A stretch of 32,000 bases of DNA from NCBI GenBank assembly GCA_003144275.1, contig NJBF01000013.1, forward strand, positions 1 to 32,000, given 5' to 3'. The notes beneath the pieces are model-generated. The model was given only the letters and a program-made list of their open reading frames with translations, ran no database searches and was not told the DNA's origin. A program made the translations under genes and the position numbers. Positions 11,919 to 19,911 of the stretch are shown here, in pieces. The stretch comes from Candidatus Heimdallarchaeota archaeon B3_Heim (lineage in GTDB: Archaea > Asgardarchaeota > Heimdallarchaeia > Hodarchaeales > Hodarchaeaceae). Numbering within the stretch: the stretch's first letter is position 1; each line of letters opens with the position of its first letter.

Positions 11919-12272
11919 ATGGTTGATGAAGATAGCGAATTGGAAGAACTTCGAAAAAGACGAGCTGCTCAGCTCCAAAATGACCAAATAGAGCAAGCCC
12001 AATTACAAAAGCAGCAAGAAGAACAACGTCGTCAGGTTGAAATTCAACGTCAAATAGTCCTGAAAGGAATATTAACTGACGAAGCACGTGAACGTCTTGG
12101 ACGGATCAAATTAGCAAAACCTGAATATGCTACCACTTTGGAAAATCAATTAATACAACTTGCATCAACTCGCAGAATCTCAGAAAAAATCACGGATGAA
12201 CAGTTAAAATCTCTCCTTAAACAGATGACTCAATCAAAGAGAGAAAGTAAAATTACTTTTAAAAGACGGTAA
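11919..12272 (+). CDS. PDCD5-like double-stranded DNA-binding protein
   Basis: ELEELRKRR..QLQ...ILTDEARERLGRIKLAKPE.A..LENQLIQLA...KITDEQLK.LL...KITFKRR; usual neighbour of rps19e. Confidence 0.93.
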   Translation: MVDEDSELEELRKRRAAQLQNDQIEQAQLQKQQEEQRRQVEIQRQIVLKGILTDEARERLGRIKLAKPEYATTLENQLIQLASTRRISEKITDEQLKSLLKQMTQSKRESKITFKRR

Positions 12273-14232: not shown

Positions 14233-15379
14233 AAATGGGTTCTGAATTAGTGAGAACTTTAGGCCTATTTCTTGTTATAAGAACATCATTTTCTAAACGA
14301 AATCCGCCTACATCCTTCTCATAAATGCCAGGTTCAATAGTTATTATCATTCCTTCTTCAATAGGACTAGGAGTCCAATGTTTTAACATGGATTCGTTAG
14401 TTGGCTTTTTTCGTAACACCGGGGAGTCATGCACAGTTAAACCAATTCCATGGCCTAGAGAATGTGGCATCCGATAACCTTGCCCCTCTATTATATTTAC
14501 CGCGACATCAGCAACTTCATGTAGATATTCTGCATCTGATAACGCATCTATTGCCGCATCATGAGCGAGTTTTACTGTATCCACAATTGTTTTCATTTTA
14601 CTGTTCATTGGTCCCATTATGAATGGAAGGGTAACATCTGAAGTTAAGGCGTCCGCTTGTACCCCGAAATCAATTAATGCAAGACCTTTCTGATATAGTG
14701 ATTGCTTGGGATCAGCACGTGGATATGTGTGTATCTGCCAAGATCTCGCACTACTAGCTACGAGTGATTCAAACCCTACTGCAAATGCTCCTAATTCTCG
14801 CATCCTACTTTCTACAAAAACTGCAAGATCCATTTCAGTTTTGACTCTGGATCGTGAAATCATTATCTCTTCAATTTCTTTGACCAGTTGATTACTTATG
14901 TCAACTGATTTTTGCATTAATGAAATTTCATAGTCGGATTTTGTTGCTCTTAATTCCGCTAGCAGATTGTCTATAATTTTCGGATTGAAAATTATCTCGG
15001 TGTTGGGTATAGCATCTAAAAGGACTTGAACTTTATCATATGGGATACCTCTTGGGATCCCTACTTTGGGATTTGAGGAAGTTCTTTTCTCAAAAAAGTC
15101 AATTGTAGCGGCTGAAATTACTCCATGATAATCTGCGACATCAACTATTTCATCAGCTTCAGAAATCATCTTTGCTAATTGATAATCCCATGGAATAAGT
15201 GTGGTTTGACGATTCTTGATATCTACAAAAAGTCCAGCTTCTTCTGGATGGCCAGTTAGATATTTTACATTTACATCTCTGTGGGCCTCTGAATCAGAAA
15301 TGAAGAGAAAATCTAGCTCGTGGGCCTCCAATGAATCATATAACTTTGTTAATTTTTCTTGCGTAATAAAACGTGCCAC
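14216..15379 (-). CDS. pepQ: Xaa-Pro dipeptidase/aminopeptidase (M24B family)
   Basis: Metal ligands LIDFG, SDVT, HSLGHGIG, TIEPG, RLENDV; N-terminal creatinase-like domain; GTG start; overlaps the convergent ORF by 17 nt. Confidence 0.9.
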   Translation of the reverse strand: MARFITQEKLTKLYDSLEAHELDFLFISDSEAHRDVNVKYLTGHPEEAGLFVDIKNRQTTLIPWDYQLAKMISEADEIVDVADYHGVISAATIDFFEKRTSSNPKVGIPRGIPYDKVQVLLDAIPNTEIIFNPKIIDNLLAELRATKSDYEISLMQKSVDISNQLVKEIEEIMISRSRVKTEMDLAVFVESRMRELGAFAVGFESLVASSARSWQIHTYPRADPKQSLYQKGLALIDFGVQADALTSDVTLPFIMGPMNSKMKTIVDTVKLAHDAAIDALSDAEYLHEVADVAVNIIEGQGYRMPHSLGHGIGLTVHDSPVLRKKPTNESMLKHWTPSPIEEGMIITIEPGIYEKDVGGFRLENDVLITRNRPKVLTNSEPIFIDLI

Positions 15380-15608
15380 TAGGAATCACCTGAACCTACT
15401 TCGGGTTGCTAGAAAAAACAAATCAAGAATTTTAAAAACCTGCTCTTGGATAATAACAATAAAATATCTAGATAAATAGCAACACCAATTCCAAATAATA
15501 ACATCAAAAGGATAGTATCACAATACAGCTGATTCTATAGCCAGGTTCCAATTTATCGAACAAAATTGGTTCAGATTAAGCAGAAAATGATCATCTTTCC
15601 TCATACGC

Positions 15609-15839
15609 TTAATCTACTTTAATCTTATGCCATTTCTTGTTTGAGGAAGCAGGTTGTTCGGTCTTTCTCGGAGTTTTTCCCGTGTATCGTCTTTTTTGCT
15701 GTTTGAGGAGATTTCTCTGAGTCATTTTGCTAATTTTACTTGTAATCAATTGCAATTCAGAATTGTTTGGACGATAAGATTTTAATAACTTCTGAAATTC
15801 AAGAAGAAGCGCATTTACCTTTTCCTTATCTACTACCAT
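15609..15839 (-). CDS. Small basic hypothetical protein
   Basis: 76-aa ATG ORF filling otherwise empty space, helical N-half and K/R-rich C-half; no family recognised. Confidence 0.5.
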   Translation of the reverse strand: MVVDKEKVNALLLEFQKLLKSYRPNNSELQLITSKISKMTQRNLLKQQKRRYTGKTPRKTEQPASSNKKWHKIKVD

Positions 15840-16080
15840 CCTGTTTAACCAAAAAATTTAAGAAAAATAAATATTTGGGAGCGGTTATACTATTCTCTCC
15901 TAAATTCCTTATTATCCAAATCATTGTTAAAGTAAATATATTAATTCTAAAATTTCCAGATTGAATATCTACATGCTTTCAGTCCCCATTTTATGAACTA
16001 TTAGGTAAATGAAAGTATGTTAACTAATTAAATTAATACTAACTAATTATTCTATTAGCATTGTTATGGAGTAATATCAA

Positions 16081-18516
16081 ATGCCAAAATTTACTATCGA
16101 AGAAGCTCAAAAACTTCTCATTCATCGTGAATTTGTACGAAACCTAGGAGTTATCGCTCACATCGACCATGGGAAAAGTACACTTACAGATTCGCTTCTT
16201 GCCGCAAGTGGATTGTTAGCAGACAAAATAGCTGGAGAAGCTAGAGCAACAGACACACGAGATGATGAACAAGAACGTGGAATTACTATAAAAACTACAG
16301 GAATCTCTCTAGTCCATGAATTAAACAAACAGACTTACCTTGTAAATTTACAAGATACTCCTGGACATGTAGATTTTTCTGGCGAAGTTACATCAGCTTT
16401 ACGTGTTGTAGATGGAGCTCTTGTCGTAGTGGACGCTGTCGAAGGGGTTATGGTTCAAACGGAGGTTGTAACTCAACAAGCACTTGCTGAACGCGTTCGT
16501 CCCGTCCTTATCATCAACAAAGTGGATCGATTAATAACTGAAATGCGTATGACACCCGAAAATGCGTACGAACAGTTTAAAAAGATAATAAGCGATTTCA
16601 ACTTGTTAGTTGAAACATATGCTCCTCCTGAATTCAAAAAAATATGGAGAGTTGATCCTAGAGAGGGAACGGTTGCATTTGGGTCGGCCATTCATCGTTT
16701 TGGTCTGACTATACCAGCACTTGCAGACATTTGGCACGAAAAAACTGGTCAACCCAAAGATAAATTGATTAAAAATTTGTGGATGAAGAATAACTTCGTA
16801 AATGGTGTACTTAAACCAACCTATGAAATCTATGAAAAAGCCGAAGAAAATGATACCGCTTCGTTAAAAAAGGTTGCAGAGCAATTAGAACTTCGTTTAG
16901 ATGAAGGAGTATGGCTCGAACCTCCAAAAAGGATCGCTAAAGCATTATTGGAGAAATGGTTACCTGTAGAAAAAGCCGTACTGGATATGGTAGCAAATTT
17001 CTGTCCTTCTCCCATCGAGGCGCAGAAATATCGATTTAAAAGTTTTTGGACTGGGGATTTCGAGTCAGCTGAAGGAAAGGGTCTTCTGAGCTGTGATTCT
17101 AATGCTCCAGTAATGATTTCTATATCTAAAATGATCCCGGGGAGAGCAAAACGGATAATTGCAATGGGAAGAGTCTTCTCTGGAACAGTTAAAGCAGGAC
17201 AGAAGATAACTGCACTTCTGCCTGGATACAAACCAGGAAGTAAAGAACGAACATTTACCACGAATATACAACAAGTGTCAATGCTAATGGGAGCGAAGGC
17301 GGAAAAAGTCGATTTTATTCCGGCAGGGAACATCGTTGCTTTGCAAGGACTCCGCGGAGCGACAGCCAGTAGTACCATTACAAGTTTAGATACGGTTCTT
17401 CCATTCAAAGCTCTGAGCTATGCAGTAGAACCAGTAGTTACAATTGCAATCGAAGCAAAATCTCCTAGTGAGCTACCCAAGCTTGCAGAGGGATTACAAC
17501 TTATGGAATTGGTTGATCCTTCGCTTAAAACCAAAGTTAATGAAGAAACTGGTGAATTTTTGTTATCTGGAACAGGTGAACTTCATCTAGAAATTGCTGT
17601 TAAAGATCTACAAGATTTACAAAAAATTGAAGTTACCCAAAGTGAACCTATCGTTGTTTTCCGAGAATCAGTAGCAGGTGAATCCTCTCACCAAGCTTTA
17701 GCAAAATCTCCCAATAAACATAATCGATTATGGGTTCGAGCTGCCCCATTAGAAAAAGATGTCATTAAACTAATTGAAGCTGGAACTATACACCAATACA
17801 CAGATCGAAAAGAGATGGGACAAATTCTGCGAGATCAGGCTGGGTGGGATGTCAAAGTCGGTCGTAAAGTATTGGGTATGGGCCCAGCTGAAAATGATCC
17901 AAATTTCTACATTGATTCAACTAAAGGGGTCCAATACTTACGCGAAGTAAAGGATTATCTTATTCAAGGGTTCCGTTGGGCAGCAAAGGAAGGTCCTTTA
18001 TGTGGTGAACCATTTTTCGGTATTAAATTTTCATTAGAAGATGTTAAGCTTCATGAAGATCCTGTGCACCGAGGAGCGGGACAAACAATGCCTGTCTCGC
18101 GAAGAGCATGTTTCGGTGCAGTTTTATTGGCATCTCCCATACTTCTTGAACCTGTTTATAAGGTTCAAGTTCAGGTTCCAGAGCAGTACCTCGGTAATGT
18201 CTTTAAAGTTCTTACAAAGAGAAGAGGTAGAGTTATCGATACTCAAAAACGAGAAGGAACCCCCCTAAATGTAATCATCGCTGAAGTTCCAGTTTCAGAA
18301 TCTTTCGGAATTACCACTGATTTACGTTCAGAGACTTCAGGCTTCGCATTTTCTCAAATGGTCTTTGATCACTGGGAAAAGGTACCTGGAGATCCCACAA
18401 AAGAAGAAGAACTAGGTGGCGGGATAGCTCGCAAATTTGTAATGGAAACTCGAAAACGTAAAGGATTCCACAACCCTAATCCTCCAAAGCCAGAAGATTA
18501 CTACGATAAACTCTGA
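16081..18516 (+). CDS. fusA: Translation elongation factor EF-2 (811 aa, eukaryote-like)
   Basis: [50 protein letters not shown], diphthamide loop [11 protein letters not shown] (His663), LRSETSG. Confidence 0.98.
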   Translation: [811 protein letters not shown]

Positions 18517-18565
18517 TTTCATCATTTAATTTCTTCTTCTTTTTTCCTTCATTGATTTTCTTTAG
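18517..18565 (+). terminator. Oligo-T/pyrimidine tract after EF-2 (archaeal-type terminator)
   Basis: tttcatcatttaatttcttcttcttttttccttc directly after the stop, facing the convergent tRNA-Arg. Confidence 0.4.
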
Positions 18566-18627
18566 GATAGGATCTATTTTTTTGATCTCTAAGGAAAAAA
18601 AGTAACTTTATTTATTGAAAAAATAAA

Positions 18628-18702
18628 CGGATCCGGAGGGATTTGAACCCACGACATTCTGCTCCGAAGGCAGACGCTCTATCCATGCTGAGCCACGGAT
18701 CC
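18628..18702 (-). tRNA. tRNA-Arg(UCG), intronless
   Basis: Reverse complement GGATCCG-TG-GCTC-AGCATGGATA-GAGC-G-TCTGC-CTTCGGA-GCAGA-ATGTC-GTGGG-TTCAAAT-CCCTC-CGGATCC-G; CCA not encoded. Confidence 0.96.
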
Positions 18703-18887
18703 AGTAAAATTAACTTCACATGTTTTGTAAAAAGCTATTTCTAGAGTAGATTAGGAGACAATAGTTAGATTAATAAGAATTTATTGGGACTCAGATTCAT
18801 TACTTAGCTTGTCATGAGGGAAGTCTTTTCTAATTTTAAACAGTTTAGCTGTTTATTCTCAGAATTTAAGACTGAGGGGGAATTTAC

Positions 18888-19163
18888 TCATCTTGACTTA
18901 CGTTCGTCTGCAGATCGGATTTTCACTTGATGTCTGTGAATTGCACAGGAAACGCAGAAATATCGAATATATGGGACTCGAGCAATTTGGGTTCCAGCTT
19001 GACGTAATTCCTTAGCAATCGTGAAATCTACTAAGTTTTTATAGCTAGTCTTACGCTTGGCCTTATCTCTTGGGACTAATCTCCTACATGAAGAGCATTG
19101 AACTTTGCCTAAGCTACCTTTCCCGCCTTTACTTCGGCCACCAGATTTTCGTTTTTTACCCAT
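18888..19163 (-). CDS. rps26e: 30S ribosomal protein S26e
   Basis: MGKKRKSGGRSKG...VQCSSC...VPRDKAK...YFCVSCAIHR..VKIRS..ERK. Confidence 0.96.
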   Translation of the reverse strand: MGKKRKSGGRSKGGKGSLGKVQCSSCRRLVPRDKAKRKTSYKNLVDFTIAKELRQAGTQIARVPYIRYFCVSCAIHRHQVKIRSADERKSR

Positions 19164-19239
19164 TACGAGAACACCTTTAATATAAGAGAATACGGTAAAA
19201 GATTTGGTTAATTTGGTAATAACCTTCTATTTCATGTTT

Positions 19240-19911
19240 TTAATTGGTGTTTTTAATCTCTCCCATGACTGGAGCAATGGTTTTCTTTGTCACGAAGATG
19301 GCTAAATTCTCTAAATTTAAGTGATACGGTTGATCCAAATCAAAAAAAGCAGAAACTTGGGGAATTTCTCCTGTTAAAAACTCGTGAACACTTTTTCTTA
19401 TAACATTCACCTGTTTAAAATACTCTTCTGAATACCGTTGGTACTTTGTTAAGAGTTCATTTGTCAGGAGAACGAAGTATGGTGCCTCATCAGAGGACAG
19501 AATTTTCTCACTAATTAATTCGTATAAATGTTCTTGATTTTTCCCGTTCATAATGAAAAGAAGAAAGCCAGGCATTGGTAAAAGGAATAAAATCATAATT
19601 GATGAAAATTGGCCAAATTGTATATCAAATTGCGACAGGGATTCATTTGAAATTATTAGTGCAGAGATAATTAAATTCAAGGAAGCAATTATTGTTGCTT
19701 GAAAGGATCCTCTTCCAGTCCAGTATAACTTGCCAGAATATTGGTAGAAGGGGTCTTTATGCGTGAAACTGATGCCTTTAAAGTTTAATACAGTATAAAA
19801 TACAATAGTCCACGGTAATAAAGACAGTAGTAAAAGATAGCTATCATAGAAACCGAGGCTGAAGACGACTAAAAAATTGATTAGCGATAGAATAAAAAAA
19901 AGGGAGGGCAA
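19240..19911 (-). CDS. Hypothetical membrane protein (3-4 N-terminal TM helices plus ~100-aa soluble C-terminal domain)
   Basis: 223-aa ORF, TTG start with AGGA upstream, co-oriented between the roadblock gene and rps26e. Confidence 0.65.
   Translation of the reverse strand: MPSLFFILSLINFLVVFSLGFYDSYLLLLSLLPWTIVFYTVLNFKGISFTHKDPFYQYSGKLYWTGRGSFQATIIASLNLIISALIISNESLSQFDIQFGQFSSIMILFLLPMPGFLLFIMNGKNQEHLYELISEKILSSDEAPYFVLLTNELLTKYQRYSEEYFKQVNVIRKSVHEFLTGEIPQVSAFFDLDQPYHLNLENLAIFVTKKTIAPVMGEIKNTN

Follow-up and report, generated by a model that had tools for sequence, protein, structure and literature searches.

Few universal proteins have discrete insertions that a single archaeal order, the Hodarchaeales, holds in common with eukaryotes; elongation factor 2 (EF-2) is one of them. 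How eukaryotic such a protein is, whether it belongs to the genome in which it is found and how it came to be there are the questions raised by a gene of Candidatus Heimdallarchaeota archaeon B3_Heim, located at positions 16081-18516 (+) of the 32,000-nucleotide stretch that we analysed (contig NJBF01000013.1, positions 1 to 32,000; hereafter the window). The EF-2 of Hodarchaeales has been cited as evidence for an origin of eukaryotes within Heimdallarchaeia (Narrowe et al., 2018; Eme et al., 2023), but also as the prime example of a possible transfer from a proto-eukaryote (Forterre, 2025). We consider it highly probable that the gene encodes the native, sole and functional translocase EF-2 of a member of the Hodarchaeales, built to the architecture of the eukaryotic family, with its function being predicted.

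The gene is a single open frame, intact and intronless, of 811 codons and a stop, starting with ATG. The strings that an initial annotation, made from the DNA letters, had quoted from this 811-amino-acid (aa) frame, i.e. the MPKFTIEE start, the P-loop, the effector region, the G' segment and the PEDYYDKL end, are all present in its translation. Its five-domain architecture, G-II-III-IV-V, is recognized by the Pfam families GTP_EFTU, GTP_EFTU_D2/EF-G_D2, EFG_III, EFG_IV and EFG_C, all above their cut-offs. The GTPase (G) domain, residues 19-210 (16135..16710, +; GTP_EFTU, E 6e-49), carries intact GTP-binding motifs, namely AHIDHGKS (residues 26-33), DTPGH (92-96) and NKVD (146-149), in columns that are invariant or nearly so. 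Within this domain, switch I (residues 57-60; 16249..16260, +) reads TDTR, with both threonines as in eEF2 and Snu114, whereas canonical archaeal EF-2 (aEF-2) has LDYL or LDFD. It is followed by the helical sub-domain G' (residues ~211-307; 16711..17001, +), which is supported by indels, span lengths, an alignment to eEF2 and structural models, and by a domain II whose insertion LPGYKP...TFT (residues 380-393; 17218..17259, +) is common to eEF2, Snu114 and EFL1. In domain IV, both the tip loop SPNKHNRL (residues 543-550; 17707..17730, +), the decoding-centre loop of functional translocases, and the diphthamide loop (residues 658-668; 18052..18084, +) are intact; the latter contains the target histidine His663 (codon 18067-18069), which, like R664, is nearly invariant in its alignment column. 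Finally, the protein ends in YYDKL (residues 807-811; 18499..18513, +), similar to the Y/F-LDKL of eEF2, where canonical aEF-2 ends in FIDEA or similar.

The eukaryotic side of this protein is most apparent in its insertions. Among solved structures, the best sequence matches are eukaryotic eEF2 chains (680-725 bits overall; Chaetomium thermophilum 725, yeast 700, human 699), followed by archaeal aEF-2 (548-622 bits), Snu114 (464) and EFL1 (389), and while the alignments to archaeal chains break at residues ~214 to ~291, those to eEF2 continue through this region. We aligned 66 sequences with MAFFT L-INS-i: 16 from Hodarchaeales, 6 animal-type eEF2 (5 of them named), 11 eEF2-like metagenomic representatives (assigned according to where they fall in the tree with respect to the named animal eEF2, Snu114 and EFL1-like proteins), 3 Snu114, 2 EFL1-like proteins, 17 canonical aEF-2, and, from other Heimdall families, 5 aEF-2 and 6 members of the aEF-2 paralogue family, aEF-2p. 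In this alignment, 71 columns in 11 segments are filled in Hodarchaeales, eEF2, Snu114 and EFL1, but unoccupied in aEF-2, both the canonical type and that of other Heimdall families; the contrary pattern was found in none of the segments. The shared segments include residues 217-234, 240-247, 259-278 and 279-284 in G' (the last two adjoining as 259-284), residues 380-385 and 391-393 in domain II, and small insertions in domains IV and V and towards the C-terminus (residues 602-603, 725-726, 772-775 and 780-781). In domain II, the region concerned spans 21 residues, compared to 12 in archaeal aEF-2.

The G' span measures 75 aa, compared to 21 aa in other archaea and 92-98 aa in eEF2, Snu114 and EFL1 alike. 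The initial annotation had described canonical aEF-2 as shorter, at about 730 aa, and devoid of most of G', and this agrees with 16 canonical representatives of 710-736 aa, which have 20-26 residues where the Hodarchaeales protein has 75. Its estimate of a G' segment of about 100 aa holds for the size of the helical sub-domain, but the net insertion within it is smaller, at ~54 aa, and falls short of that in eEF2, Snu114 and EFL1 by ~20 aa. HMMER aligns this insertion residue by residue with that of eEF2, via conserved blocks that include LW..F..L.P.. and WLP...A.L.M, and the yeast eEF2 strings given in the annotation match those of the fungal eEF2 chain 7old in the same alignment.

Structure prediction, which the annotation had suggested as a check, points in the same direction. 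The full-length AlphaFold2 model has a pLDDT of 87.7, with 86-95 in the G' blocks, and its top Foldseek E-values are to eEF2; TMq reaches 0.90 on Snu114, compared to 0.80 on archaeal aEF-2, whereas TMt on archaeal aEF-2 is 0.88-0.90, meaning that the model accounts for the archaeal chain but has about a tenth of its own length left without a counterpart. When residues 196-322, comprising G', were modelled alone (pLDDT 77), the best 50 of 350,542 chains were all eEF2, Snu114 or EFL1, with TMq values of 0.6-0.67. As the domain is small and helical, the E-values of these matches are weak (7.8e-3 at best), and the argument rests on their exclusive identity. By sequence and modelled fold, the insertions are homologous to the eukaryotic ones.

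The grouping with eukaryotes does not depend on these insertions. We inferred a tree with IQ-TREE under the LG+C20+F+G4 PMSF model from 723 columns filled in at least 80% of the rows, which thereby left the inserts out. It separates the 16 Hodarchaeales and 22 eukaryotic sequences from the 28 other archaeal ones with a support of 100/100 and a branch length of 0.40. Within this group, Hodarchaeales are monophyletic (100/96), as are eEF2, EFL1 and Snu114 together (100/100), and all 11 unnamed eEF2-like representatives are placed among the eEF2 sequences. Other Heimdall families have an aEF-2 that branches within the canonical archaeal radiation, at the end of a long stem (0.92), and aEF-2p is a separate clade. 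Even after removal of the insert regions with generous flanks (581 columns), the split of Hodarchaeales and eukaryotes stays, with an SH-aLRT of 100. Given a root among the other archaea, these insert-free columns place the Hodarchaeales EF-2 as sister to eEF2, EFL1 and Snu114. A grouping with canonical short aEF-2, which the initial annotation had named as a refuting outcome together with non-homologous inserts, is thus not what we find. At the same time, the protein falls outside the eukaryotic clade and its G' lacks the full eukaryotic length of 92-98 aa, so it is not an eEF2 proper. The same pattern of indels and tree topology was reported by Narrowe et al. (2018; PMC6143161, Fig. 2, 100/100) and Eme et al. 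(2023; PMC10307638) and is reproduced here.

Several observations weigh against this reading. On shared columns, identity is highest to the aEF-2 of Bathyarchaeia, at 51.5%, versus 46% to eEF2, and at diagnostic sites, whose consensus residue is not the same in eukaryotes as in archaea, the Hodarchaeales proteins are eukaryote-like at 7, archaeal-like at 10 and neither at 7. The NCBIfam equivalog model for aEF-2, TIGR00490, matches the protein with a score of 694.8, in two stretches broken at G' and below its curated cut-off of 738.45, so that by this model it is not a canonical aEF-2. Furthermore, our trees are unrooted and contain no bacterial outgroup, and 'sister' therefore presumes a root among the other archaeal sequences; moreover, the aEF-2 of other Heimdall families is not adjacent to the clade of Hodarchaeales and eukaryotes in the free tree, where vertical descent predicts it to be. 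GTPase activity, translocation and diphthamide modification, lastly, are predictions drawn from conservation.

The protein core is therefore intermediate rather than eukaryotic. With eEF2 it shares the GKS P-loop, the TDTR switch I, the inserts and the YYDKL end, and with canonical aEF-2 the start of the diphthamide loop (first half of HEDPVHRG), besides being closest to it in raw identity. The description 'markedly eukaryote-like' in the initial annotation consequently stands for the indels and some motifs, but not for the shared core, which is as archaeal as it is eukaryotic. An intermediate core combined with a G' of 75 residues fits a lineage that diverged before the eukaryotic duplications. 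One might go further and speculate that the Hodarchaeales protein records a transitional step in how the eukaryotic EF-2 family was assembled, with G' growing from 21 to 75 and then to 92-98 aa, but we regard this as rather unlikely. The threonines of TDTR, which is already in place in the Hodarchaeales protein, are the regulatory phosphorylation site of eEF2 in animals and yeast. If the transitional step were real, the sequence of insert gains, and perhaps the control of translocation by phosphorylation, would be older than eukaryotes and accessible to testing in an archaeon. A search of the genome for an alpha-kinase of the eEF2-kinase type (PF02816) gave no match, but it gave none in any control genome either, so this negative is uninformative.

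The most serious alternative concerns the evolution of the gene, not its function. In the scenario of Da Cunha and Forterre, an ancestor of Hodarchaeales took its EF-2 from a proto-eukaryote, displacing an aEF-2 of Asgard type, and the latest account explicitly names Hodarchaeales EF-2 as a case in which such an ancestor swapped its own protein for the proto-eukaryotic one (Forterre, 2025; PMC12395588). In line with this, the long EF-2 type is restricted to a single order within the class, other Heimdall families have an aEF-2 that lies among the canonical archaeal sequences, far from Hodarchaeales, and a clade of Hodarchaeales and other Heimdall aEF-2 that excludes eukaryotes is rejected by the approximately unbiased (AU) test (p 0.004). 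However, the clade expected under vertical descent, comprising Hodarchaeales, eukaryotes and other Heimdall aEF-2, is not rejected (p-AU 0.07, delta lnL 25), which makes the single-gene data compatible with both histories, and the placement of the other Heimdall aEF-2 is itself suspect, given their long stem and the absence of dph genes. Furthermore, as the Hodarchaeales protein branches off before eEF2, EFL1 and Snu114 separate and has a shorter G' than each of them, any donor must predate the duplications. Composition and synteny show nothing foreign, although an event this ancient would leave no such trace.

Because the other Heimdall aEF-2 are fast-evolving and come without dph genes, because archaeal states are kept in the core and the diphthamide loop, and because the partner dph enzymes are of archaeal type, we consider a vertical ancestry shared with eukaryotes somewhat more likely than an ancient transfer, which we regard as possible but doubtful. 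In our reading, the Hodarchaeales lineage split from the eukaryotic one at a time when the duplications that gave rise to eEF2, EFL1 and Snu114 had yet to occur and G' had yet to gain its final ~20 aa.

Whichever history applies, the protein is expected to act as a translocase. By analogy with eEF2 and aEF-2, its GTP form would bind the ribosome, and the tip of domain IV, with the SPNKHN loop and the loop of His663, would enter the decoding centre and drive the translocation of tRNA and mRNA. His663 would be converted to diphthamide by an archaeal-type three-enzyme pathway, Dph2, Dph5 and Dph6, encoded elsewhere in the genome. The genome, which is an estimated 94% complete, has one gene for each of these enzymes, all above the curated cut-offs (dph2 230 bits, dph5 176 bits, dph6 173 bits). 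The predicted proteins are of archaeal size (337, 266 and 228 aa, respectively), and their matches among solved structures are archaeal enzymes only. The genome gave no match to the CSL zinc ribbon of Dph3 type (PF05207), a weak negative given the shortness of this family and the incompleteness of the assembly.

The genome also has a single EF-2: the only other match is a weak G-domain hit (E 3e-6), and no aEF-2p paralogue was found in it. The annotation had called for a search for dph genes and for a second EF-2, and it is the former that are present. To place this in context, we searched 40 related genomes, 23 others of the order and 17 from three other families of the class. In these relatives, the presence of dph2 tracks the long EF-2: within the order, 22 of the 23 genomes have it, and the one that does not is 71% complete, versus none of the 17 from the other families. 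Most of the latter instead encode an aEF-2 of ~745 aa with an altered diphthamide loop and an aEF-2p of ~660-700 aa, and in two of them no match to EF-2 passed the threshold. No second canonical EF-2 was found in two single-contig genomes of the same genus (G009 and G015). The correlation between dph genes and EF-2 type was published in 2018 and 2023 (PMC6143161, PMC10307638).

These results also bear on whether the protein might be a neofunctionalized paralogue, similar to aEF-2p, EFL1 or Snu114, instead of a working translocase. It does group with the family that yielded non-translocase paralogues in eukaryotes, but it is the sole EF-2 of a genome that retains the dph pathway, its domain IV tip loops (SPNKHN and H-x-D-x-x-H-R-G) and diphthamide histidine are intact where they are degenerate in aEF-2p, EFL1 and Snu114, and the stem of the Hodarchaeales is short (0.12, versus 0.7-0.9 for Snu114 and EFL1). 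We therefore deem a neofunctionalized paralogue very improbable.

A more radical doubt is that the gene could be an artefact of assembly or binning, either a chimera of an archaeal EF-2 and an eEF2 fragment or part of a eukaryotic contaminant contig. For the EF-2 of LC3, chimerism or contamination is said to have been suggested originally by Da Cunha in 2017. The source genome gives some room for such concerns, being a draft of 3.95 Mb in 103 contigs, with the window on contig 21, and with 3.9% estimated contamination. None of the public runs, moreover, contains more than 0.25 of the sampled words, and the linkage evidence consists of assembled contigs. However, independently assembled Logan contigs, which come from four studies of marine sediment and cold seeps, map to the locus and bridge both the gene and its insert junctions. 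A contig of 2,708 nt, from a marine-sediment run of 2016, covers 15949-18656 with ~96% identity and two 1-nt gaps, both downstream of the stop codon; another of 1,310 nt (16324-17633) spans both G' junctions, and two shorter ones cover 16560-16851 and 16789-17190. A few 'joints' at 16181-16353 and near a neighbouring tRNA gene, with short sides (20-70 nt) and 88% likeness, are read as conserved pieces of other organisms.

The relatives also provide evidence against an artefact. The closest database proteins are 83-95% identical, all of 811 aa, and named Hodarchaeales, Hodarchaeota or Heimdallarchaeota. Among the searched genomes, a complete frame of 811 aa is found in 18 of the same genus (with 83-98% identity within the genus) and in the two that represent the order's second family; three of the assemblies with this form are single contigs. 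In three further genomes of the genus, contig ends divide the EF-2 frame into pieces. Many of the relatives also keep the gene order M24 peptidase - EF-2 - eS26 - 223-aa membrane protein - Roadblock. The neighbours in the window are ordinary housekeeping genes of archaeal or Asgard type, encoding eS6, aIF5B, SRP19, FtsJ, Trm1, RPA, Elf1, eS19, a PDCD5/TFAR19-like protein, BirA, the M24 peptidase, tRNA-Arg, eS26, Roadblock/LC7, DUF460 and RIO2. Composition is native too, with a GC content of 0.407, a GC content at third codon positions (GC3) of 0.271 and a synonymous-codon distance of 0.083, all inside the range of the window's 23 other genes. Together with the lack of introns and an identity of just 45% to any eEF2, this effectively refutes an artefact: the gene is not chimeric and is native to the Hodarchaeales genome, as the initial annotation had proposed. 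Forterre himself has withdrawn the chimera or contaminant reading (PMC12395588).

Convergence, in which unrelated insertions would have entered a canonical aEF-2 at matching positions, might be entertained because the G' and domain II loops are known insertion hot spots in translational GTPases and the G'-only Foldseek E-values are weak, but the residue-by-residue alignment with eEF2, the agreement of all 11 shared segments in position and length class, the exclusive match of the G' fold to eEF2, Snu114 and EFL1, and the same grouping in the insert-free tree leave it practically no probability.

Among known proteins, the EF-2 of the window is most similar to that of the LC3/B3 clade of Hodarchaeales, with which it shares the eukaryote-type indels, the sister position to eukaryotes, a single copy without aEF-2p and the full archaeal dph set. 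The LC_3 protein itself (P0047), from a different genus, falls into the same clade of our tree and differs in nothing qualitative, being 64% identical and 828 rather than 811 aa long. Since the 'eukaryotic-type EF-2' of this clade was already described in 2018 and 2023 (PMC6143161, PMC10307638), the window is a further example, and the expectation in the initial annotation that it was probably not new was correct. What it adds is one more clean and well-embedded case from a well-sampled genus, in which the chimera objection fails; it is not a new kind of observation.

Compared to eEF2 (Saccharomyces cerevisiae 1N0U, C. thermophilum 7OLD, human 4V6X), the protein agrees in its five domains and G', in the insert of domain II, in the GKS P-loop and TDTR, in the diphthamide histidine and the SPNKHNRL loop, and in ending with Y-DKL. 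Unlike eEF2, it lies outside the eukaryotic clade, is only 45-46% identical, has the shorter G', and is served by the three-enzyme archaeal dph pathway; the first half of its diphthamide loop is archaeal, with HEDPVHRG in place of HADAIHRG, and it does not have the G-domain insert of the sampled animal eEF2s. With canonical aEF-2 (TIGR00490; M. nitroreducens 6U45, P. horikoshii 5H7J, Bathyarchaeia P0085), it has in common the domain order, the domain IV loops, the diphthamide site and presumably the function. It differs from these in being ~75 residues longer, in its 11 extra segments, in TDTR versus LDYL/LDFD and YYDKL versus FIDEA, and in the branch of 0.40 (100/100) that separates them.

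Snu114 and EFL1/Ria1 have all of the insertion segments (occupancy 1.00), and Snu114 even gives the best full-length superposition (TMq 0.90). However, both are extended, N-terminally or internally, their domain IV loops are degenerate and without the context of the diphthamide histidine, and they form long branches inside eukaryotes. Finally, aEF-2p, which is known from dph-lacking Asgard archaea, Korarchaeota and Bathyarchaeota (Narrowe et al., 2018) and is present in sister families of the class, shares the superfamily and the G domain. At 650-700 aa, however, it has neither the tip loops of domain IV nor the diphthamide loop or the C-terminal tail, and it forms a clade of its own.

Some further observations on EF-2 proteins were made along the way. 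In public records, the orthologues of the Hodarchaeales protein are named merely 'GTP-binding protein', probably because their scores fall under the TIGR00490 cut-off. The best-scoring cluster representative (at 50% identity) after Hodarchaeales is the EF-2 of Candidatus Ranarchaeia (P0122 / P0272; 1233-1246 aa, 52% identical), which has ~500 extra residues before its C-terminal 496, possibly a G-domain intein, but no G' insert; its tree position, near the base of the clade of Hodarchaeales and eukaryotes, is unresolved. In the ~745-aa aEF-2 of the dph-lacking Heimdall families (L028-L034), H-x-D-P-A-H-T-G-F replaces the usual H-R-G, with the histidine retained, and SPNGHN takes the place of SPNKHN, changes consistent with relaxed constraint after the loss of diphthamide. 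One genome of the same genus as B3_Heim (G020) contains a second match (C131:414-968, -) in an open frame of 886 aa, with a G domain that shares 54% identity with residues 25-214 of the EF-2 studied here; contamination, an origin of this EF-2 family protein in another organism and a genuine additional paralogue are all conceivable explanations.

The immediate surroundings of the gene offer a few features of their own. In the 700-nt gap upstream of EF-2, a divergently transcribed open reading frame of 76 aa (15609-15839, -) has a C-terminal half rich in lysine and arginine. It is a real gene, since it is kept at the same position in 18 related loci, with 50-96% identity, and it could be a lineage-specific partner of EF-2; it has no match among Pfam families and no usable one in the Atlas. 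Downstream, 110 nt from the EF-2 stop codon and convergent with it, lies the gene for tRNA-Arg(TCG) (18627-18703, -), the sole match in an Rfam scan of 15000-19500. Over this tRNA, contig depth in metagenomes is up to 10-fold higher, because its sequence is common to many organisms. A scan for promoters and terminators gave results at chance level, with a sigma-70 model that is not relevant to archaea. Lastly, the PDCD5/TFAR19-like protein, a predicted dsDNA-binding protein, is encoded within 5 kb of EF-2 (11919-12272, +; Pfam E 1e-28), and a TFAR19-related marker is, like EF-2, one of just five non-ribosomal markers for which Hodarchaeales are the immediate sister group of eukaryotes (Forterre, 2025; Table 2, PMC12395588).

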